Under the pieces are notes generated by a model, which searched no databases, was not told where the DNA came from, and worked only from the letters and a program-made list of their open reading frames with translations. Source: Spirochaetota bacterium (GTDB lineage Bacteria > Spirochaetota > UBA4802 > UBA5550). From it: a stretch of 44,069 nucleotides of DNA. The stretch is taken from positions 1-44,069 of the forward strand of contig JBHPHB010000004.1 in the NCBI GenBank assembly GCA_042569985.1, read 5' to 3'. Below are positions 10,220 through 27,059 of this stretch, in pieces (the first letter of the stretch is position 1; each line of letters opens with the position of its first letter). A program made the translations under genes and the position numbers.

Positions 10220-11872
10220 ATGAAGATACCTCAAATGAAAAATAAAACAGTCTATGGAGTGGTTATATTAGCCCTTGTGTTCCTGGCATTATTGCCCGGC
10301 AAAGATTTATTCGCAGGGCAATATGCCGATTATAATTGGTTTTGGGTTTTTTATGAATATGAAAAGACTGATAGTTTTAAAAGTTTTACAGTGAGGCCGT
10401 TCTTTTTAAGAAATGAAAAGAAAGGACAAAAATTTGAGACATCCTTAATGCCAATAATTTATTGGAGATACAAATACCCAAATAGAGATGAATACAGGGG
10501 ATTATTCGGCATCATGCATTCCGTTGATTATACTCATAAGACCGGTATTAAAGATTTCGATCTATTTTTATTTCCCGTATTTTTTTACGGCAGTTCACCG
10601 GACAAGAGGGATCGGTATATGATGATCTGGCCCTTCGGGGGCTCAATCCGCGGTAAGTTTGGTATCGAAAAGGTTTCGCCATATGTTTTTCCCGGTTTTC
10701 TTCTTTTTGTATTCTTTCCTCCTGCGAGTGTATTTTCATGGACAACAACCTTTTATGTGATATTATCCGTCCTTCCCGCCTACATGACCATAGAGGACAG
10801 GGGCTATAAGGCGTTCTCCATATTCTGGCCTTTAATACAAAAGGGGGAGAGCAAAAATCGTTATGACTTCAGGGTGCTGCCTTTTTTTTCATATAGCAGG
10901 AAAAAGGGATTTTATGAGAATTATTCATATCTCATGATTTTTAATTACCGGAAAATGTTCTACACCAATGACGTTCATAAAACCTTTTTAGCCCTATTCC
11001 TATACGGAAAAAAATGGAGTGATTCCGGAGTTTTAGCAGCTACAACAATTCTCTGGCCATTTTTTTCCTGGGGATATGATAAGAGAATCAAAAGTTACCA
11101 GATGAATTTACCCTGGCCCCTCATCCAGATCCAGGATTGCGATGAACCGAAGATTAAGAAAAGAATATTCTTTCCTTTTTACGGAGAATATAATTTTAGA
11201 AATATTAAAACTGTATTTGTAACGCCATTGTATTTTCATCTGAATAAAAAGGGTGAAAATTTCAACTCTGATTATTATTATACTTTTTTATTTATTGTAT
11301 GGTATTTTAAACGTGAATACAAGGTATCAGATAAATACTATGGAAAGCAGTGGAGATATTTTAAAATATGGCCGCTCTTTAATGTTGAGTATAATGATGC
11401 CGGTGATTTTGCCTTCAACCTGCTTTCTGTATTTCCAATGAGGGATCGTGTTGGTTATGAAAAGCTGTATCAGCCTTTTTTCTCAATATTCGAGTATAAA
11501 AGGTTCCGCAGTGGTGAAAAGAGGCTGGGTTTTCTAATGAGATTGTATTTCCAAAGGTGGAGTAATGATTTTCTTTTTATCAAGATCCCCCTTTTGTTTT
11601 CTTATTCACAGTCAAAAGATAAAATGACTGAGCTCTCGTTTTTTATGTACATGTTTGCATATGAGCATGAAAAAAAAGGGAAGTACATTCGGCTATTCTG
11701 GATCCCCATAAGGATCGGTGATGCCGATCCGGACCTTGAATTAATCGGCAGCAATAAACCTGTGAGAAAAGAGGAGAAGAATCCGAAGTATCATCATTTA
11801 AGTGACTATTCATATTATATCTCTTATAATATGCCGTTAAAAAGTTTTAAGGTGTCGTGCAATTTCTTTTAG
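10220..11872 (+). CDS. Exported aromatic-rich repeat protein, first gene of the mla-like operon
   Basis: Signal peptide ending DLFA; many repeats of the type (F/L/I)(W/F)P(F/L)(F/Y); 7 bp upstream of mlaE. Confidence 0.7.
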   Translation: MKIPQMKNKTVYGVVILALVFLALLPGKDLFAGQYADYNWFWVFYEYEKTDSFKSFTVRPFFLRNEKKGQKFETSLMPIIYWRYKYPNRDEYRGLFGIMHSVDYTHKTGIKDFDLFLFPVFFYGSSPDKRDRYMMIWPFGGSIRGKFGIEKVSPYVFPGFLLFVFFPPASVFSWTTTFYVILSVLPAYMTIEDRGYKAFSIFWPLIQKGESKNRYDFRVLPFFSYSRKKGFYENYSYLMIFNYRKMFYTNDVHKTFLALFLYGKKWSDSGVLAATTILWPFFSWGYDKRIKSYQMNLPWPLIQIQDCDEPKIKKRIFFPFYGEYNFRNIKTVFVTPLYFHLNKKGENFNSDYYYTFLFIVWYFKREYKVSDKYYGKQWRYFKIWPLFNVEYNDAGDFAFNLLSVFPMRDRVGYEKLYQPFFSIFEYKRFRSGEKRLGFLMRLYFQRWSNDFLFIKIPLLFSYSQSKDKMTELSFFMYMFAYEHEKKGKYIRLFWIPIRIGDADPDLELIGSNKPVRKEEKNPKYHHLSDYSYYISYNMPLKSFKVSCNFF

Positions 11873-19526: not shown

Positions 19527-21041
19527 ATGACAAAGAAAAAAGAAATAGTAAAAGAGCTGAAAGGAGAAATTTCATATCTTCGCTCAATAATTGATGCCTA
19601 TGAGAATTTAACTGTACTGAGGGAAAAGGAGATCGAAGATGCCCGGTCAACCATCGATGCTTTTGAGAAAATTTCCGGACTAAGGGATAAAGAAATAGTA
19701 GATTCAAAGTCTACTGTTGAAGCCTATGAGAAAGTTTCAACTCTAAGCAAAAAGGAGATCGAAGAGGCCAGGCTAACAATCATGGCCCTGGAAAAGACTT
19801 TAGGCTTCAGTAACAGGGAGATTGGTGAAGCTAAATCCACAATTAATGCTTTTGAAAAGATGTCGGACTTACAGCTTAAAGAGATTAGCGAAGCCAAGTC
19901 AACGATAGATGCATATGAAAAAATTTCAGAATATACGCGCAAGGAGTATATAGATTTAGTTGAACGTGTAGGGAAAGTTCGTAAGTTTTCTCACCCCATT
20001 CAGAAAAAGATGGTAAGAATATTAGATGAAGACCATAAAAACGAAAGCCATATTTTGATGAAATTAAACCTTTTAAAGGTTGAAGACGATTCACCAAATT
20101 TCTACTCCCATCTCTTTTATGTTCTCACCAATCTTAAATTTGATGAACAGACCGCAAGAGAATATTGGGAAGATATTATTCAGCTCAATGATGAAAGCAG
20201 TAAAAAACTGGGCCGCCATATTTCGTTCAGGGTGTCCCTCCTTGATTATTTTGTTGGTAAGAATAAACATTTAAGGAACCCCAAAATTATTGAGTTTAAA
20301 TTTTACGAGTCTGTCATGGAGATTGAAGGTGACCTGGAAGTTGCTCGGCTTATCCAGGAGAAGTTATTTCCCAAGAAAATGCCTTCAGTACCGGGCTATA
20401 ATTTCTATGCAAGATATATTTCCATGGATAAGGTGGGCGGTGATTTTTATGACGTAAAGGAGAGTGGTGACCTGATTAAAATTTTCATGAGTGATGTTTC
20501 CGGACATGGGCTTGTAAGCTCATATTTAGCCCAGATTGCAAAGATATCCCTTGACAGTGTGCCGGAAAAAATGTCTCCCAGGGAAGCCCTGACCTTAATT
20601 AACGAATCAATTTGCAAGTATACGGTTAACTTTAATTATATCACATCATATTTAGTTGAAATAAATTTCAAAAAAAATACGGTTAGATACAGCAATGCAG
20701 GGCATGTTCCTCCGGTCCTTTACAGGGCGAAAAGTGATGAGTTTTTTGAGCTTAAGGTTAAAGGCCAACCGCTTGGCTGGTTTGAAGAACTTGACCTTGA
20801 AGAGGGCGAGATGGATTTACAGCCCGGAGACAGGCTTGTCATATATACTGACGGCATTACTGAATGCTGCAACCCAGAAGATGTAATGTTCGGTATGGAC
20901 AGTTTTAAGGAATTTATAAGGTCAAACAAAGATCTTTCACCTGAAGATCTGTCCAGTGAGATTATTAAACACCTCATGTGCTATTCAAGCCGGGATAGTT
21001 TTAATGATGACATTGCTTATGTAATAGTAGATGTTTTGTAG
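19527..21041 (+). CDS. PP2C/SpoIIE (RsbU-like) phosphatase with 21-aa repeat coiled-coil N-terminus
   Basis: VGGDFYD, DVSGHG, NAGH, YTDGITE and DDI motifs; six 21-aa repeats at residues 18-143. Confidence 0.9.
   Translation: MTKKKEIVKELKGEISYLRSIIDAYENLTVLREKEIEDARSTIDAFEKISGLRDKEIVDSKSTVEAYEKVSTLSKKEIEEARLTIMALEKTLGFSNREIGEAKSTINAFEKMSDLQLKEISEAKSTIDAYEKISEYTRKEYIDLVERVGKVRKFSHPIQKKMVRILDEDHKNESHILMKLNLLKVEDDSPNFYSHLFYVLTNLKFDEQTAREYWEDIIQLNDESSKKLGRHISFRVSLLDYFVGKNKHLRNPKIIEFKFYESVMEIEGDLEVARLIQEKLFPKKMPSVPGYNFYARYISMDKVGGDFYDVKESGDLIKIFMSDVSGHGLVSSYLAQIAKISLDSVPEKMSPREALTLINESICKYTVNFNYITSYLVEINFKKNTVRYSNAGHVPPVLYRAKSDEFFELKVKGQPLGWFEELDLEEGEMDLQPGDRLVIYTDGITECCNPEDVMFGMDSFKEFIRSNKDLSPEDLSSEIIKHLMCYSSRDSFNDDIAYVIVDVL
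19578..19955 (+). repeat. Six intragenic 63-bp (21-aa) tandem repeats
   Basis: Consensus A(K/R)STI(D/N)A(Y/F)EK(I/M)SxLxxKEIx(E/D). Confidence 0.85.
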
Positions 21042-21044
21042 GTA

Positions 21045-22202
21045 TTATTCTGCAACTTTGTAAACACTGTTTTTAAAGTACCGGCAACTTTCTGAAAGGT
21101 CATCACCCTGCCGGAAAAGGTCCCCACCGATAAGGAAGATGATGTCATTATTGTATACGTCCAGTATCTCCGGAATTCTGTCTACCCTCATACCTCCTCC
21201 TGGAATGGGGAATATGGGTTTTATGTTACCCATGTCACTTTTACAGCCTCTATTGACACTTTTACACTCCTCACGCGTAAAGGAAAACCTGCCTCCGCAA
21301 TAGGGATGGATGCTCCCGTCGGCACCTGAAATTCTGGACAATTGACCAAAAATTGCATAGTGGGATATGCCATTTGTTGGACTGGTTACATAACTTCCCT
21401 GCAGGGCGGGATGGGATAGGAGTGGAAGGCCAATGCTGTCATCACTGGCAATTTCACGCATTGCATCCAGCCCCGTAATTCCGGGAGAAATTACCAGGGC
21501 GCCTGCACCCAGTTCTTTTGCCGTCCTTGCCCTTTTAATTATTTTATCAAAGGGAGCAGTTATGTTAGGTGCATATAGTGTGTTACCGCCTGTTTCACTG
21601 TTCGCCTTTTGCACAGATTCAGTAACACATTCCACTCTTTTTTGGAAAGAGCAGAAGTCCTGGTTGGCGAGGCCATGGTCGTCCTTAATAATATCAATAC
21701 CGCCAAGCGCAAAATGGTATGCCAGGCCTCCAAGGTCTTTTGGAGAAAGTCCCATTGGCTTTAATGGTGTACATAAAAGGGGCATTTCGGGAATGTCAAG
21801 TATACTTCTTAAACCCTCTATCCCAAATCTTGGCCCTGTGAATATTTCATAGAGGCCTTTAGATAAGTTTATCCTCTCCAGTTTCCTGTAAGGTTTTATG
21901 CTTATATTTCCAAAAATTACATTTAAAAACTGTGTTAATTCCTTTCCTGCAATTTCCGATGAAAAACTTATTTCTGTCTCAAAAATTTTCTCATCAATCT
22001 TTTTGAAATTTTCAATCCTGCCGAATATATGATTACGGATGAAGCTTTGAGGTATGAGGTCTTCGGGGAATTCTACTGTCTGTTCAATGGTAATATCTTC
22101 CGCCATCTCACGGGTATCCTCTTCGTTTCCAAAAAGATGGTAAATTACAGAGAAACGCTCTTTTGAAAGTTCCGGGATTGATGTAATTTTTATTTCAGAC
22201 AT
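21045..22202 (-). CDS. RubisCO-like protein (form IV, KDDH type)
   Basis: IEQT, FGNIS, LKPMGLS, GGIDIIKDDHGL, SHPA, GGRF, PGGG, LIGG; ATG at 22202 lies 1 bp after the transketolase stop. Confidence 0.92.
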   Translation of the reverse strand: MSEIKITSIPELSKERFSVIYHLFGNEEDTREMAEDITIEQTVEFPEDLIPQSFIRNHIFGRIENFKKIDEKIFETEISFSSEIAGKELTQFLNVIFGNISIKPYRKLERINLSKGLYEIFTGPRFGIEGLRSILDIPEMPLLCTPLKPMGLSPKDLGGLAYHFALGGIDIIKDDHGLANQDFCSFQKRVECVTESVQKANSETGGNTLYAPNITAPFDKIIKRARTAKELGAGALVISPGITGLDAMREIASDDSIGLPLLSHPALQGSYVTSPTNGISHYAIFGQLSRISGADGSIHPYCGGRFSFTREECKSVNRGCKSDMGNIKPIFPIPGGGMRVDRIPEILDVYNNDIIFLIGGDLFRQGDDLSESCRYFKNSVYKVAE

Positions 22203-22203
22203 A

Positions 22204-23211
22204 TTATAATGCCTCGGCTTTTGCTTCACTGTGTACAGATTCAATGCGTATTTCTGAAAGTTCATCTTCGGTAATGTTAAATGTATTTCCCGTTAACCTT
22301 TCTACACGGGATGCCAGGGATAGGGCGTCAATTTCATACTCTTTCATCAGGTATTGTTTGCTTGCCCCGTGAGTAAAAACATCTTTTATACCGATTTTGA
22401 TGAGTTTTTTGCCAACTCCATTTTCCGCCATCATTTCGGCAACAGAGGTGCCCAGGCCGCCAATGACAGTATGATTCTCCATAGTGATTATTCCGTACTT
22501 TGGTCTTGTGATCGCATCAATTATTTGGGGGTCATCAAAGGGCTTAAGGGTTGATACATGGTAATGGTCTATAGAAACTCCCCTTTTCTGCAATGCCGTA
22601 ACCGCTCTAATTGCTTCTTCTGTACATATACCGCTGGAAAGGAGGAGTATATCGCTTCCCTTCTCCAGTTTGCGTGCCTTGCCCAATTCCATTTTATCCT
22701 TAGAATGAAAAAGTCTGGGTATTTCTCCTCTTAGCATTCTAATGTAAACGGGGCCATTAATTTTATAGACAACGTCAAGAATTGACTCTACGTCAGTTGC
22801 ATCACCGCATTCAAGTATTGTCATGTTCGGTAGAGAACGCATAATTGATATGTCTTCTATTGCCTGATGTGTTGCGCCTCCCGGTGTTGTTATTCCCGGC
22901 AGAAAACCGAACATCATTACGGGAAGGTTGGGATAGGCAATGGACATTGCTACCTGATCGTATGCCCTGCGGTAAATAAAAACTGCAAAGGTATGAATAA
23001 AGGGGATAAAACCTTCACGCGCAAGACCGCCTGCAAAACTGTGCATATTCTGTTCGGCTATGCCCATTGAAAAAAATCTGTCCGGGTAAGTCTTTCTGAA
23101 AAGGTCAATTTCTGTTGAGCTTGTAAGGTCTGCCGAAAGAACAACAATTTCCGGCTTGTCTTTGGCCCATTTTACAAGATTATTTGTATGGATTTTTGTC
23201 AGTATCTCCAT
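22204..23211 (-). CDS. Transketolase family, C-terminal (Pyr + C domain) subunit
   Basis: LSADLTSST, MGIAEQNM, RAYDQV, GATHQAIED, GPVYIR, ENHTVIGGLG. Confidence 0.92.
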   Translation of the reverse strand: MEILTKIHTNNLVKWAKDKPEIVVLSADLTSSTEIDLFRKTYPDRFFSMGIAEQNMHSFAGGLAREGFIPFIHTFAVFIYRRAYDQVAMSIAYPNLPVMMFGFLPGITTPGGATHQAIEDISIMRSLPNMTILECGDATDVESILDVVYKINGPVYIRMLRGEIPRLFHSKDKMELGKARKLEKGSDILLLSSGICTEEAIRAVTALQKRGVSIDHYHVSTLKPFDDPQIIDAITRPKYGIITMENHTVIGGLGTSVAEMMAENGVGKKLIKIGIKDVFTHGASKQYLMKEYEIDALSLASRVERLTGNTFNITEDELSEIRIESVHSEAKAEAL

Positions 23212-23215
23212 TAAA

Positions 23216-24127
23216 TTATTCCTTACCTTTCATATCCTTTAGTGCTTGAGCGTATAGTTCTTTTTCATCGGGGCTTTTAAACCTTAAGTAATGAAGTTTC
23301 GGAGCATTTGCCCGCAACGGTTCCAACCCTCTGCAGGGATCCGTTTGCGCAAGCACAACCAGGGGCCTTCCGTCGGGTGGGAGTTCTGATGGTTTTGTAA
23401 GTGCCTCGATGTCGTGGCCGTCAACAGAAAAGACCCTTGCACCGAAAGATTCAATGCGTTTGTCAAGAGGTTCAATATTCATTACCTCTGTTATCAGCCC
23501 GTCACACTGCTGGCCATTTACATCGACATATATCCCCATGTTGTCCAGTTTGAAGTTTGACATTACCTGGAGGGCTTCCCATGTCATGCCAATCTGAAAT
23601 TCACCGTCCGACATAAATATCCAGTTCATGCCCTTTTCGCCCTTGAGCTTTCTTGCAAGTGAAATGCCTGCTGCCTGGCTTAGTCCCTGGCCCAGAGAAC
23701 CAGCGGTAACTTCCATGCCCGGGGAGTGTTCCGCGCCGATCATTTCAACACTGCTGCCGTCCCTGTTGAATTTTTCAAGCCCCTTTGTGGACATTCGCCC
23801 CACTTCAATGAGAGCTGCATAAACAGGCAGCGCATAGTGTGATGGAGAAAGGAAAAACCGGTCATAGTCCGGTCCGTGCGGCCCGTTGAATTTTGCGCCG
23901 GTAAAGTATTTATTATTATCTTTTGCTGGGACACCGGGGAAAGGTTCCGGCTCTAAGGGTTTTTCCATATGGGGGAGATTCATTATCTTCAAATATAATG
24001 AAGCCAGAATTTCAGATGATGAGCATGCCTGGCTCATATATCCGCCATTATTGTTAATTGTATGCTCAAGGACCCTTGTACGGATTCCCTTTGCCGCAAT
24101 TTTAATGTTTTCTTTCCATTCTTTCAT
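23216..24127 (-). CDS. Transketolase family, N-terminal (PP domain) subunit
   Basis: DRFFLSPSHY, GSLGQG, TPP motif SDGE..DVN, DGHD. Confidence 0.92.
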   Translation of the reverse strand: MKEWKENIKIAAKGIRTRVLEHTINNNGGYMSQACSSSEILASLYLKIMNLPHMEKPLEPEPFPGVPAKDNNKYFTGAKFNGPHGPDYDRFFLSPSHYALPVYAALIEVGRMSTKGLEKFNRDGSSVEMIGAEHSPGMEVTAGSLGQGLSQAAGISLARKLKGEKGMNWIFMSDGEFQIGMTWEALQVMSNFKLDNMGIYVDVNGQQCDGLITEVMNIEPLDKRIESFGARVFSVDGHDIEALTKPSELPPDGRPLVVLAQTDPCRGLEPLRANAPKLHYLRFKSPDEKELYAQALKDMKGKE

Positions 24128-24207
24128 TTCAATTACTATGGTTTTTGGATGTAAAAAGTGAGTGTAAGTATGTCAACTGAAAAAATTTTTTATATTTAAA
24201 ATTTGAG

Positions 24208-24238
24208 TTTAATAATCCTTTCCCGGCGGGTTATTAAA
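24208..24238. promoter_or_regulatory. Inverted repeat between divergent transketolase-RLP and polyprenyl synthase genes
   Basis: TTTAATAATCC-N9-GGGTTATTAAA, 10 of 11 complementary. Confidence 0.4.
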
Positions 24239-24291
24239 AAAATCTTGCATTTATATATTATAATTATTAAGTGGATGAAATAGTATAATGT

Positions 24292-25287
24292 ATGGTGATT
24301 ACCTTGAATTATGAAACAATTAAATCTTATGCCAAAAAGGTTGATGATTATATCGTAGGCTGTTTTGGTTATAAGCAAGAGGACCTTTGGAAAGCTGCCA
24401 TGCATTATATGGAGGGTGGCGGAAAAAGAATACGTCCATACCTGGCTTTTAAATCATATGAGTTAATTAAGGGCAAACCCGATTTTAAGCTTACCGTTCC
24501 AATTGCATCTGCCATTGAGCTCCTTCATACTTACACTTTAATACATGATGATGTTATGGACAAGGATGAAATTAGAAGGGGCATGCCAACTGTTCATAAA
24601 CGCTGGGGTGAGCCCCTGGCAATTTTATCGGGAGACTTGCTTCTGAGTAAGTCCATGGAATTTGTTAATGATTTGTCTATTGACCCGGAATTAAAAAAAC
24701 TCATTTTTTCTGAGTTTATTCAGGTTGTTGAAGAATTATGCCTGGGCCAGGCCATGGATACTTCCTTTGAAGAATCTCAGGGTGTTAAGCATGAAGATTA
24801 TATTAAAATGATTTCACTGAAAACAGGTTGTTTGATTGAGCGAAGCGCAAGGATCGGTGCACTGGCAGGCGGGGCAATGGACAATGACCTTGGTTCCATG
24901 GGAGCATTTGGCTTAAATGTTGGTATGTCTTTCCAGATTGTTGATGACATTCTGGGAATTGTGGGGGATGCAGAAAAATTCGGGAAACCAATTGGCAGTG
25001 ATCTTGAGAGCGGAAAAAAAACACTTATTGTCATCCATACTGATGAGAATCTGGATGATAAAGAAAGAAAACGTTTTAGGGAAATATTGGCTCTGAGAGA
25101 TAAGAGCGGTCATGATAAAGATGAACTTCTAAAATATATAAACAGCTGCAGATCAATTGAATATGCAAAAAAAATTGCCCAAAACTATTATGACGATGCC
25201 ATTGCCTGCCTCGACAGGTTTACCCATTCTCAGGCAAAGAATGATCTTGTAGAACTTGCCCGGTTAACTTTAGACAGGAAGGTATAA
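24292..25287 (+). CDS. Short-chain polyprenyl diphosphate synthase (GGPP/FPP synthase, IdsA-like)
   Basis: GGKRIRP, first Asp-rich motif YTLIHDDVMD with RRG, GQAMD, KT, second motif FQIVDDILG, GKPIGSDL. Confidence 0.92.
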   Translation: MVITLNYETIKSYAKKVDDYIVGCFGYKQEDLWKAAMHYMEGGGKRIRPYLAFKSYELIKGKPDFKLTVPIASAIELLHTYTLIHDDVMDKDEIRRGMPTVHKRWGEPLAILSGDLLLSKSMEFVNDLSIDPELKKLIFSEFIQVVEELCLGQAMDTSFEESQGVKHEDYIKMISLKTGCLIERSARIGALAGGAMDNDLGSMGAFGLNVGMSFQIVDDILGIVGDAEKFGKPIGSDLESGKKTLIVIHTDENLDDKERKRFREILALRDKSGHDKDELLKYINSCRSIEYAKKIAQNYYDDAIACLDRFTHSQAKNDLVELARLTLDRKV

Positions 25288-26230: not shown

Positions 26231-26249
26231 GTGGAACGGATGTTTGTTA

Positions 26250-27059
26250 ATGGGCAAGGAAATGAAAAAAATCAGCTTGGATAATATTATTCCCATTAGG
26301 GCTTTTGGCGATAATTATATCTGGCTTATTACAAACCCCGAAAAGACCAGGGGAATTGTCTTTGACCCCGGCAGCGCACAACCTGTACTTAGTTATCTGG
26401 AAAACAATAATATAGAGCTCTGCGGAATTTGTATTACACATCATCATATGGACCATACGGGAGGCGTGAGCGGCCTTAGATCAAAATATAAAGTGCCTGT
26501 TTATGGCGGGGCAGGGGACGGCATTGGCGGTTTGACGAACCCTTTAAAGGAAAATGATACCATTAGATTCGACGAGATTGATTTATCTTTGAGAGTGATT
26601 GAAACTCCCGGGCATACAAGGGGACATGTTGTCTATTATGCAGAGAAGACGAACCCGCCTCTTTTATTCAGTGGAGATGCCCTTTTCCTGGCCGGATGCG
26701 GCAGGGTTTTTGAGGGAACCTTTGATGGGATGTATGGGTCGCTGTTAAAGTTAAAAAAACTTCCCCGGGAAACCCTGATTTTTTGTGCCCATGAGTATAC
26801 TTTAAGTAACCTGAATTTTGCATCTGCTGTAGAGCCGGGGAATAAGGAGATATTAAACCGCTCAAAGGAAGTTTCTCAAATGGTAAGCAACGGCCGGCCC
26901 AGTGTGCCCGGCTCTGTGGAGGAAGATTTGGCCACAAACCCTTTTTTGCGATGTGATATAATGGATGTAAAAAATGCTGCACAAAAACATTCAGGTGGTA
27001 CATTGAATAGTGAAAGTGCGATATTTGCTGTTTTGCGATCCTGGAAAGATTCATTTTGA
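26250..27059 (+). CDS. gloB: Hydroxyacylglutathione hydrolase (glyoxalase II)
   Basis: DNYIW, THHHMDH, TPGHT, FSGDALFLAGCGR, CAHEYT, TNPFLR; start uncertain (26244-26262). Confidence 0.93.
   Translation: MGKEMKKISLDNIIPIRAFGDNYIWLITNPEKTRGIVFDPGSAQPVLSYLENNNIELCGICITHHHMDHTGGVSGLRSKYKVPVYGGAGDGIGGLTNPLKENDTIRFDEIDLSLRVIETPGHTRGHVVYYAEKTNPPLLFSGDALFLAGCGRVFEGTFDGMYGSLLKLKKLPRETLIFCAHEYTLSNLNFASAVEPGNKEILNRSKEVSQMVSNGRPSVPGSVEEDLATNPFLRCDIMDVKNAAQKHSGGTLNSESAIFAVLRSWKDSF

Follow-up and report, generated by a model that had tools for sequence, protein, structure and literature searches.

A three-gene operon in the genome of a Spirochaetota bacterium raises the question of why a RubisCO-like protein (hereafter referred to as RLP) should be encoded together with the two halves of a split transketolase. 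We addressed this question for the whole 44,069-nucleotide stretch of DNA carrying the operon (contig JBHPHB010000004.1; hereafter referred to as the window). The minus strand contains three consecutive ORFs: TK-N (24,127–23,216; 303 aa), the thiamine-diphosphate-binding (PP) subunit of a specialised split transketolase-like enzyme, TK-C (23,211–22,204; 335 aa), the subunit with the pyrimidine-binding and C-terminal domains, and the RLP (22,202–21,045; 385 aa), of the KDDH (DeepYkr) type. The tight packing described in an earlier, sequence-only reading of this DNA was confirmed from the ORF coordinates, with intergenic gaps of 4 and 1 nt. The ATG one base beyond the stop of TK-C was taken as the RLP start, in preference to a longer ORF from 22,265, which overlaps TK-C and disagrees with the N-termini of homologues. 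The operon shares the 164-nt intergenic region at 24,128–24,291 with a divergent polyprenyl synthase gene, and its promoter is presumed, from position, to lie there; a consensus scan of this region yielded promoter-like matches no better than expected by chance for such AT-rich DNA, and no riboswitch was detected in the whole window (Rfam). Within the window, the operon stands alone, without salvage genes alongside. On balance, we favour its interpretation as the downstream half of an oxygen-independent salvage pathway for 5'-methylthioadenosine (MTA), formed as an S-adenosylmethionine by-product, in which the transketolase-like enzyme takes the place of a cupin and cleaves 1-methylthioxylulose-5-phosphate. 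We base this interpretation on gene content, conserved linkage and complementarity with the cupin, together with the remodelling of the TK pocket and the S-box control observed in two species.

The RLP contains the RuBisCO large-subunit catalytic domain (PF00016, 114.7 bits against a Pfam cutoff of 30.1). Its translation includes the motifs IIKDDHG (K173 D174 D175 H176), LKPMGLS (K148), SHPA (H264 P265), GGRF (R305), PGGG (G335–337), FGN (N99) and IEQT (E40), the residues of which are invariant, with at most one exception, in 81 aligned clade members. From motif position, we take the relevant spinach RubisCO equivalents to be E60, N123, K175, K201, D203, E204, H294, R295, K334 and S379. By this numbering, the RLP has KDDH where RuBisCO and MtnW have KDDE and has lost the equivalents of R295, K334 and S379, and the motifs bear out the residues reported from the sequence alone as kept (E60, N123, K175, K201–D203, H294) or replaced (E204H, R295P, K334R, S379G). 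Among solved structures, the nearest is 3qfw (235 bits, E value of 1e-68), in which the KDDH motif is also present and which we take to be the RLP1-type protein of Rhodopseudomonas palustris, its database name being only RuBisCO large subunit. Scores were 130–153 bits for MtnW-type enolase structures, two of which (4nas and 2zvi) carry KDDE, and 115–121 bits for 1tel, 1ykw and 2qyg, presumably Photo-type RLPs. Two NCBIfam assignments were rejected: the MtnW/YkrW 2,3-diketo-5-methylthiopentyl-1-phosphate enolase (NF007095, 211.5 bits against 409; TIGR03332, 162.2 against 513.6) and the apionate-pathway RLP, OiaX (NF042437, 66.4 bits against 700, covering only residues 73–249). The prediction that this protein would prove to be of the DeepYkr type was thus upheld, with 3qfw the closest structure and the MtnW and OiaX models far below their cutoffs. 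Hundreds of RLPs, among them the Heliobacillus mobilis protein, are 55–59% identical to the window RLP, and some of these proteins carry the JGI name S-methyl-5-thioribulose 1-phosphate isomerase. In the phylogenetic tree, it is the sister of the RLP from a Leptospira MAG locus (L040).

From its sequence, the window RLP is probably a 5-methylthioribulose-1-phosphate 1,3-isomerase generating 1-methylthioxylulose-5-phosphate, a role assigned by reference to orthologues that are indistinguishable in sequence and adjoin an Rru_A2000-type cupin. According to PMC5893883, this reaction is established for the enzymes of the KDDH RLP type from Rhodospirillum rubrum and R. palustris, and the cupin partner acts on a methylthio compound.

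The two transketolase-like subunits were recognised by Pfam models (TK-N: PF00456, 63.8 bits; TK-C: PF02779, 107.9 bits, and PF02780, 64.8 bits), and both fell below the cutoff of 488 of the best NCBIfam transketolase equivalog, NF004559 (141.4 bits for TK-N and 217.5 for TK-C). A DXP synthase identity was rejected (TIGR00204, 186.3 bits for TK-C against 465.95; for TK-N, only a 23.6-bit match to Pfam DXP_synthase_N). The NCBIfam models matched did not include one for the apulose-4-phosphate transketolase (AptA/AptB). The closest solved relatives are the chains of a split transketolase, the N chain of 6yak for TK-N and the C chain of 6yaj (219 bits) for TK-C. The thiamine-diphosphate residues are retained (SDGE...N204 in TK-N and the cofactor-activating Glu53, in GIAEQNM, in TK-C), with no variation across 52 aligned rows for TK-N and 56 for TK-C; TK-C also retains Ser32 and Arg161. 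Family-invariant features of TK-N (52 rows) are GGY (Tyr30), VEMIGAEHSPG, SDGE, N204 and PKLHY. Relative to the canonical transketolase of the same genome, TK-N also has about 27 additional residues, inserted as a conserved block. The invariant TK-C motif GFLPGITTPGGATHQAIED places Phe/Leu103–104 at a canonical His and Gly111 at a canonical Asp. Alignments to 3mos, 4kxu, 6yak, 6yaj and the genome's own canonical enzyme indicated that, at four positions contacting the substrate, the canonical residue has invariably given way to another (Tyr30 for His, IGAEH for GHPE at Ile130/Gly131, Phe103/Leu104 for His and Gly111 for Asp), the canonical residues being retained in 6yak/6yaj and in the genome's own canonical enzyme. 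These positions presumably correspond to His26, His100, His461 and Asp469 of the Escherichia coli enzyme, involved in donor and acceptor binding. The His to Phe/Leu and Asp to Gly replacements, which the model of the sequence-only reading did not predict, lie where canonical transketolases hold the phosphate and C4-OH of xylulose-5-phosphate; a 1-methylthio analogue should require no change at these residues, an observation that runs against a methylthio substrate. Identity between TK orthologues is 54–65%, sharply separated from that to other transketolase paralogues (≤38%), and public databases label the subunits plainly as “transketolase” (4383 cluster representatives at E≤1e-60).

A split or fused TK was found directly upstream from the RLP gene in 60 of 80 related loci, which carry about 12 phylum labels and include one from an Asgard archaeon. 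In 10 of these 60 loci, mtnK and mtnA were present in the same gene string, ahead of the TK. Conserved linkage of the pair to the RLP, with mtn genes in some of the loci, was therefore recovered by the survey proposed from the sequence alone. Seven or eight of these 10 loci also had ABC transporter genes (Pfam). Within the phylum, a sample of 301 genomes yielded TK-N orthologues (E≤1e-70) and RLP orthologues in the same seven genomes, on a shared contig and about 1–2 kb apart, and neither gene in the other 294. The gene order in two Clostridium species is SBP-ABC-permease-mtnK-mtnA-TKN-TKC-RLP, with a SAM riboswitch 272 nt (C. ljungdahlii) or 386 nt (C. drakei) upstream from the first gene and no intervening ORF of at least 60 aa; none was detected in the other 15 loci scanned, the positives representing one lineage of two related species. 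The recurrent neighbours were mtnK, mtnA, metY (no more than 8 kb away in just two of the 60 loci with TK), the Rru_A2000-type cupin and transporter genes, rather than sugar-acid kinases or dehydrogenases or apiose genes. Acetate kinase and phosphotransacetylase genes were not enriched near the module, and nor were reductase or methylthio-alkane reductase genes. Conservation did not extend to the polyprenyl synthase gene, a neighbour in 0 of 80 loci.

The relationship between TK and cupin was strictly complementary. A homologue of the Rru_A2000 cupin (3jzv, E value of 3e-45) flanks the RLP in 8 of the 80 loci, none of which has TK. Genome-wide searches identified TK orthologues in none of the 8 cupin-linked genomes. 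The cupin was detected in all 8 positive controls but in none of the 24 TK-linked genomes sampled. Twelve genomes had neither gene adjacent to the RLP: TK was located elsewhere in nine, the cupin elsewhere in two others and neither gene in one, with no genome containing both. The cupin-linked RLPs nest among the TK-linked RLPs, well-supported branches forcing at least two switches of partner, and the alignment has 59 invariant columns but no column separating the two sets. This distribution and nesting provide support for the proposal, made in the sequence-only reading, of a cupin supplanted by the two transketolase subunits.

The upstream enzymes expected by that reading are encoded in the window's own genome, with mtnA (TIGR00512, 446.4 bits against a cutoff of 279) and mtnP (TIGR01694, 316.4 bits against 274.85) present on contigs other than that of the operon, among unrelated neighbours. 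No Rru_A2000-type cupin was detected by tblastn and genome search, and mtnB and ARD/MtnD were not found, extending to the genome assembly the reported lack of cupin and mtnD genes in the window; this assembly is 65.8% complete, and absences from it constitute weak evidence. The five module-bearing relatives all had mtnA and mtnP above the cutoff, with no ARD or Rru_A2000-type cupin in any of them, the only cupin signal in the four near-complete genomes being one generic match of 25.5 bits. Four of the five had an O-acetylhomoserine sulfhydrylase above the cutoff, and four had a class II aldolase-family gene scoring 65–73 bits on the MtnB model, below the cutoff, which could encode an Ald2-type aldolase providing a second route from methylthioribulose-1-phosphate. 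The presence of mtnA is unspecific, as it exceeded the cutoff in 37 of 41 genomes sampled from the order, with or without the module. The genome also contains a DXS-like gene (contig C6) and, on contig C37, a canonical full-length transketolase gene, indicating that the split enzyme is not the housekeeping transketolase.

In the pathway that we propose, MTA would be converted into 5-methylthioribulose-1-phosphate by MtnP and MtnA, encoded elsewhere in the genome, and the RLP would isomerise this compound to 1-methylthioxylulose-5-phosphate. The split thiamine-diphosphate enzyme, rather than a cupin methylsulfurylase, would then cut the C2–C3 bond, releasing glyceraldehyde-3-phosphate; we infer this substrate from the neighbouring genes only. 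Methanethiol would then most likely be expelled from the methylthio-C2 unit still bound to the cofactor, giving acetyl-thiamine-diphosphate and then acetate or acetyl phosphate, and O-acetylhomoserine sulfhydrylase would return the methanethiol to methionine. The C–S elimination on the TK cofactor, suggested by analogy, is plausible but, taken alone, falls somewhat short of probable. A little more tentatively still, the pair may be viewed as a “methylthio-phosphoketolase” yielding glyceraldehyde-3-phosphate, methanethiol and an acetyl unit, forming with the RLP a redox-neutral methionine salvage route requiring no thiol or oxygen and constituting the commoner RLP partner (about 69 of the 80 sampled genomes, about 12 phyla including an Asgard archaeon), with the cupin route in the minority. 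No description of a TK-RLP salvage route was found in the literature searched, and no enzyme assay was found for any member of the TK family.

The linkage and distribution evidence would fit equally well with an enzyme occupying the same position in the pathway without cleaving the C–S bond, acting as a lyase or transferase on 1-methylthioxylulose-5-phosphate to give glyceraldehyde-3-phosphate and 2-methylthioacetaldehyde, or transferring the C2 unit to an aldehyde, with the sulfur recovered later. Canonical transketolases are indeed transferases, and the DHAP shunt, as presented in PMC5893883, shows 2-methylthioacetaldehyde to be viable as a salvage intermediate. We nevertheless consider this possibility unlikely, because two steps would be used for what the Ald2 aldolase achieves in one, the reductase and methylthio-alkane reductase genes are not enriched near the module, and the replaced cupin frees the methylthio group directly. 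Moreover, by established chemistry, an enamine bearing a thiolate leaving group at the beta position should eliminate readily. A module serving mainly 5'-deoxyadenosine from radical-SAM enzymes seems less likely again. MtnP or MtnK, with MtnA, would generate 5-deoxyribulose-1-phosphate, the RLP would convert it into 1-deoxyxylulose-5-phosphate, and TK would cleave this product or use it as a donor. Such a role would accord with the action of MtnK, MtnA and MtnP on both methylthio and 5-deoxy sugars in the DHAP shunt (PMC10986504 and PMC10441430), with the 186 bits of TK-C on the DXP synthase model and with the polyprenyl synthase gene adjoining the operon in the window. That gene is, however, a neighbour in none of the 80 loci, S-box control of the two Clostridium operons points to a need for methionine or sulfur, the displaced cupin acts on a methylthio compound (PMC5893883), and RLP-made 1-deoxyxylulose-5-phosphate would feed isoprenoid synthesis without any further enzyme. 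The two functions are compatible rather than mutually exclusive, and the enzymes of MTA salvage may also process the 5-deoxy analogue.

Assignment to an unrelated pathway for a sugar or sugar acid, be it apiose, apionate or another pentulose, with an apulose-4-phosphate-type transketolase and an RLP acting as a decarboxylase or hydrolase, appears very improbable. Split transketolases and RLPs are both reportedly found in apiose and apionate pathways (Carter et al. 2018), and no salvage genes lie beside the operon in the window, but the OiaX score is an order of magnitude below its cutoff, the RLP shares the KDDH motif of 3qfw, and the recurrent neighbours are mtnK, mtnA, metY and the cupin. 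That a housekeeping split transketolase merely happens to lie next to an orphan RLP is scarcely credible: the plain name “transketolase” given to the subunits in public databases is in its favour, but it is contradicted by the co-occurrence in seven of seven genomes with 294 double negatives, the separate canonical transketolase, the gap in identity between orthologues and paralogues and the loss of four canonical substrate residues.

In the known RLP route, the cupin is required together with a thiol (glutathione, for example). If our interpretation is correct, it would explain the recovery of MTA sulfur in many anaerobes with MtnK or MtnP and MtnA but lacking MtnB, MtnD and the cupin, and would provide a function for thousands of proteins labelled only “transketolase” or “ribulose bisphosphate carboxylase large subunit”. 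“RubisCO plus transketolase” operons in genomes from metagenomes could then be mistaken for evidence of a Calvin cycle, and the transketolase family would gain a new reaction type, marked by signature residues open to mutagenesis.

The closest known system is the MTA-isoprenoid shunt of R. rubrum and R. palustris, consisting of MtnP, MtnA, a DeepYkr RLP and the cupin 1-methylthioxylulose-5-phosphate methylsulfurylase. The system described here resembles it in having MtnP and MtnA in the genome, a KDDH-type RLP, independence from oxygen and methanethiol as the likely carrier of sulfur to methionine. It differs in that no cupin is present, its position being taken by a split thiamine-diphosphate enzyme that would need no thiol co-substrate; 1-deoxyxylulose-5-phosphate could not be formed without a reductant, and the link to isoprenoid synthesis has therefore probably been lost. 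The 235 bits of the window RLP to 3qfw, which in the alignment lacks six residues after HPA, are also far below its 474–507 bits to TK-linked relatives. With the split transketolase of Carboxydothermus hydrogenoformans (6yak/6yaj) and full-length transketolases, the window pair shares the fold, the cofactor DG..N motif, the activating Glu, one phosphate-binding Arg and one Ser and, with the former, the division into PP and Pyr+C subunits; unlike canonical transketolases, it has four replaced substrate contacts, the TK-N insertion and strict RLP linkage, and lies below every NCBIfam transketolase equivalog cutoff. DXS similarly handles a xylulose-5-phosphate-like skeleton and gives TK-C a partial score (186 bits against a cutoff of 466), but TK-N fits transketolase models much better. 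The apionate RLPs (OiaX) and apulose-4-phosphate transketolase likewise combine an RLP and a split transketolase in pentose-like catabolism; the window RLP is set apart from the former by its OiaX score (66 bits against 700), and the recurrent neighbours of the module include no apiose or apionate genes. Phosphoketolase and sulfoacetaldehyde acetyltransferase (Xsc) offer a parallel for the proposed step, in that their thiamine-diphosphate enamine loses water or sulfite from the beta position to form acetyl-thiamine-diphosphate; the TK step would have methanethiol as the leaving group. The analogy is one of mechanism only, and the window enzyme belongs to neither family by sequence. Finally, the DHAP shunt (MtnK/MtnP, MtnA and Ald2) is also oxygen-independent, has upstream enzymes and a transporter context in common with the TK-RLP module, and, as the module would, splits a methylthio-pentulose phosphate to yield a triose phosphate and a C2 sulfur fragment; it does so with a single class II aldolase acting on methylthioribulose-1-phosphate to give DHAP, whereas the module would use an RLP isomerase and a thiamine-diphosphate enzyme to give glyceraldehyde-3-phosphate.

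The three genes lie on the minus strand: TK-N (24127..23216; 303 aa, Pfam Transketolase_N) and TK-C (23211..22204; 335 aa, Pfam Transket_pyr and Transketolase_C), the two subunits of a split transketolase-like enzyme (TK), are followed by the gene for the RubisCO-like protein (RLP; 22202..21045; 385 aa, Pfam RuBisCO_large). The ORF coordinates bear out the intergenic gaps of 4 nt and 1 nt described in the sequence-only reading. A GAGG lies about 9 nt before the RLP start at 22202, which agrees with the N-termini of homologues; an alternative, longer ORF from 22265 runs into TK-C. The best NCBIfam matches of the RLP were the MtnW enolase models, at 211 bits (cut-off 409) and 162 bits (cut-off 514). 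Its best solved structure was 3qfw (235 bits), with the IKDDHG, LKPxGLS, HPA and GGRF motifs in common; we take this entry, the database title of which gives only RuBisCO large subunit, to be the DeepYkr-type RLP of R. palustris. MtnW-type structures, which carry KDDE, scored 130-153 bits. The nearest relatives in a search of 5.8 billion proteins were 54-59% identical and included the RLP of Heliobacillus mobilis; some close relatives have been named S-methyl-5-thioribulose 1-phosphate isomerase by JGI. The reaction is established for relatives of this protein: according to PMC5893883, R. rubrum and R. palustris have DeepYkr RLPs that convert 5-methylthioribulose-1-P to 1-methylthioxylulose-5-P, plus some ribulose epimer, and the methylthio group of this product is then removed by a cupin.

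Linkage between TK and RLP, for which the sequence-only reading had proposed a neighbourhood survey, proved to be widely conserved. With one genome per species, 598 stretches were matched, 577 of which encoded relatives, and the best 80 loci (designated by L and a number) were retained for ORF calling, clustering and tabulation of neighbours. TK-C or a fused TK lay directly upstream of RLP, with strand and order kept, at 60 of these 80 loci (best 80 of 577); a cupin adjoined RLP without TK at eight, neither partner adjoined it at 12, and at none did both. The median spacing in the 60 TK-linked loci was about 0-4 nt, and TK was fused in five of them. According to record titles, these loci cover about 12 phyla: Chloroflexota, Nitrospirota, Bacillota, Planctomycetota, Spirochaetota, Acidobacteriota, Myxococcota, Verrucomicrobiota, Calditrichota, Pseudomonadota, candidate division FCPU426 and, in one genome, Promethearchaeota (Asgard). 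Across related loci the TK subunits were better conserved (54-76% identity) than the RLP (51-58%). Orthologues of TK-N (E<=1e-70) were present in seven of 301 genomes of the same phylum and RLP orthologues in the identical seven, on one contig and about 1-2 kb apart; neither was present in the remaining 294. These seven genomes span at least five families, kinship making the genomes of the phylum sample non-independent. Among 40 closer relatives, TK was found in five and RLP in four, the TK of the odd genome lying at a contig edge. This patchy distribution (4-5/40), together with the G+C content of the operon (21045-24127; 0.40-0.44, versus 0.36 on both flanks), is consistent with lateral acquisition. 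The fused, single-polypeptide TK (639-702 aa) was seen at loci L003, L010, L013, L056 and L062, at G021:C9:63498-64346 in a further genome, and in the genomes of L004, L011, L012, L021 and L047. It occurred mainly in Nitrospirota, and in the genomes with this form it was often unlinked from RLP.

The two partners of RLP were complementary in their distribution. The cupin adjoining eight RLPs is clearly homologous to Rru_A2000 (3jzv, E 3e-45), which we take to be the R. rubrum methylsulfurylase, an assumption consistent with PMC5893883. Whole-genome checks of the eight cupin-linked genomes recovered the cupin in 8/8 (positive control) and a TK-N orthologue in 0/8, and no cupin was found in any of 24 of the 60 TK-linked genomes, all with TK-N beside RLP; in the other 36, the cupin was looked for within about 8 kb only. 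The 12 genomes with neither partner adjacent yielded a TK-N orthologue in nine cases (mostly fused, 665-702 aa) and a cupin in two different genomes; one had neither anywhere and none had both. Exactly one partner was thus present in 79 of the 80 RLP carriers (best 80 of 577) where tested. When a maximum-likelihood tree was built from 88 RLPs, the cupin-linked sequences were nested among the TK-linked ones and well-supported branches forced at least two switches; a TK-linked Syntrophomonas, for example, fell within a cupin-linked Syntrophomonadaceae group. No alignment columns separating TK-linked from cupin-linked RLPs were found, and 59 columns, including all active-site motifs, were invariant. 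The simplest reading is that the RLP reaction would be identical in both settings, with TK and cupin as alternative consumers of its product.

The TK subunits were aligned with the split transketolase 6yak/6yaj, human transketolase (3mos and 4kxu) and the canonical transketolase of the same genome, and residue conservation was measured across 52 TK-N and 56 TK-C rows. Binding between the subunits of split transketolases is textbook knowledge. The cofactor machinery is kept (SDGE...N204 in TK-N, Glu53 within GIAEQNM in TK-C), as are Ser32, Arg161, Arg/Lys6, His115 and, probably, His279. Four positions that contact the substrate in canonical transketolases are replaced, and the replacements are invariant across the family: the His of the GH(P) motif is Tyr30, GHPE has become IGAEH (Ile130/Gly131, with His134 three to four residues further on), the His of THD is Phe103/Leu104 and the Asp of GEDG is Gly111. 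These positions presumably correspond to His26, His100, His461 and Asp469 of E. coli transketolase, in which we take His100 to lie near the donor C1-OH, and His461 and Asp469 near the phosphate and C4-OH. His97 is variable (His in 28 rows, Gln in 22), and an insertion in TK-N, about 27 residues long, is conserved. The family has 4383 cluster representatives at E<=1e-60. Public sources name its members no more specifically than ‘transketolase’, ‘thiamine pyrophosphate-dependent enzyme’ or ‘DXP synthase N-terminal domain-containing protein’, and NCBIfam release 20 holds no specific model for TK-N or TK-C.

In ten of the 60 TK-linked loci, mtnK and mtnA lay directly upstream, and most of these ten also had genes for a sugar-type ABC transporter. 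Carriers of the complete string SBP-ATPase-permease-mtnK-mtnA-TKN-TKC-RLP include C. ljungdahlii, C. drakei, a Chloroflexus and the Asgard genome. The first gene of the operon is preceded by a SAM riboswitch at a distance of 272 nt in C. ljungdahlii and 386 nt in C. drakei, and the interval contains no ORF of at least 60 aa; this ties the operon there to methionine or SAM status. The riboswitch precedes the operon in this one lineage only and was rejected as a general regulator; no SAM riboswitch was detected in 15 of the 17 loci scanned, nor in the window, and the same scan revealed an unrelated c-di-GMP riboswitch at L043. Further SAM riboswitches were observed just downstream of RLP in two Bacillota loci, L015 (9452-9552, plus strand) and L035 (12414-12524, plus strand), where they lead to metY (the O-acetylhomoserine sulfhydrylase gene) or ABC transporter genes, placing the module in a methionine-gene neighbourhood. 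The metY gene was no more than 8 kb away in two TK-linked and four cupin-linked loci, and the gene for a conserved ~179-aa protein lay between metY and RLP in four of the eight cupin-linked loci (L057, 2329-2868, and three others) and in no TK-linked locus. Five TK-linked modules (L024, L031, L042, L059 and L065) have a class II aldolase-family gene (PF00596) no more than 8 kb away, at L065 inside the operon, between mtnA and TK; its product could be an aldolase of the Ald2 type, as in the DHAP shunt, or an epimerase acting on the ribulose epimer. Among gene clusters found in at least three loci, neither acetate kinase nor phosphotransacetylase was enriched close to the module. Nitrospirota also have an AhpD-like carboxymuconolactone decarboxylase-family protein (PF02627) with a CxxC-type motif between fused TK and RLP (L010, L029, L056 and L062; also present at L004 and L021), which may handle thiols or disulfides for released sulfur. 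At L005, L054, L065, L069, L074 and L077, mostly in Chloroflexota, RLP or TK-N is directly adjoined by a gene for an SBP_bac_1-family protein (about 375-430 aa), which may be part of a transporter or act in the cytoplasm.

The genome to which the window belongs is 65.8% complete. It encodes MtnA (446 bits) and MtnP (316 bits), both on contigs other than that of the window; at this completeness, mtnK, the cupin, a class II aldolase and ARD (MtnD) were not found, and mtnN gave no match exceeding the cut-off. Near-complete module-bearing relatives had mtnA and mtnP in 5/5 cases, O-acetylhomoserine sulfhydrylase in 4/5 and ARD and cupin in 0/5. In 4/5 there was a class II aldolase-family gene scoring below the MtnB cut-off, which could provide a parallel Ald2 route. 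As a specific marker of the module, mtnA was dropped, because 37 of the 41 genomes sampled from the order have it, with or without the module.

Two unrelated genes bound the operon. Downstream, a SpoIIE/PP2C phosphatase gene (19527-21041, plus strand) converges on the operon, ending at 21041. The N-terminal ~190 residues of its product consist of about six repeats of about 22 residues, of the form ..KEI.EAKSTIDAYEKIS.. (translation), with a weak coiled-coil-like Pfam match only. On the other side, 164 nt from TK-N, is a divergent polyprenyl synthase gene (24292-25287, plus strand), the best models for which, IdsA and GGPP synthase, were both under cut-off; two more paralogues are present on contigs C46 and C6 of the same genome. 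Its location next to an ‘isoprenoid shunt’-type RLP is suggestive, though the adjacency is unconserved: it was shared by 0/80 related loci (tblastn; best 80 of 577), and the gene was rejected as an isoprenoid link. A promoter and terminator scan of 20800-24400 gave no signal exceeding background. The remainder of the window is ordinary chromosomal DNA, with cobalamin, Mla transport, carB, flagellar hook and chemotaxis genes. A 550-aa ORF without a Pfam match (10220-11872, plus strand) lies directly upstream of the MlaE, MlaF-type ABC ATPase and MlaD genes. Another gene, 2 kb from the operon (26244-27059, plus strand), encodes a homologue of glyoxalase II (hydroxyacylglutathione hydrolase), a hint that the organism uses a glutathione-like thiol; this is relevant to the question of why a route independent of thiols would persist.

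Taken at pathway level, we consider it rather probable that the module serves cupin-free salvage of 5'-methylthioadenosine (MTA), with the TK-like enzyme cleaving 1-methylthioxylulose-5-P. Gene content, linkage and complementary distribution are direct observations; the TK reaction is a proposal. The enzyme would add thiamine diphosphate to C2 of this substrate, and C2-C3 cleavage would then release glyceraldehyde-3-P. The remaining enamine, with methylthio in the beta position, should expel methanethiol, as expected from its resemblance to the chemistry of phosphoketolase, sulfoacetaldehyde acetyltransferase and fluoropyruvate with pyruvate-processing enzymes; the resulting acetyl-thiamine-diphosphate would leave as acetate or acetyl phosphate. 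Drawn by analogy with these precedents, elimination of methanethiol on the cofactor is a tentative proposal. A hydrophobic residue at the His100 position would fit the accommodation of a methylthio or methyl group; the loss of the His461 and Asp469 equivalents is not explained by the model.

Cleavage or transfer by the TK-like enzyme without C-S scission appears unlikely. There is a slim chance that the module acts mainly on 5'-deoxyadenosine, a role compatible with cupin-free MTA salvage. The TK pair is not the housekeeping transketolase: a separate canonical transketolase of full-length type, cut by the end of contig C37 of the same genome, rules this out. We regard an unrelated sugar pathway as very improbable; its apionate/apiose version was rejected on model scores and neighbour genes, the RLP scoring 66 bits with the apionate model OiaX (cut-off 700). 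Chance adjacency of TK and RLP is hardly credible.

A search of openly available full texts found no paper linking an RLP with transketolase in MTA salvage; an earlier mention of the neighbourhood may exist elsewhere. The word transketolase is absent from PMC5893883. Cupin-free MTA salvage would join a known pathway head (MtnP/K, MtnA and the DeepYkr RLP) to a different, so far uncharacterised tail enzyme, which may catalyse a reaction unprecedented in its superfamily. The proposed TK route would be redox-neutral and thiol-free, whereas the cupin route uses up a thiol reductant; without two electrons, the TK route would not yield 1-deoxyxylulose-5-P.
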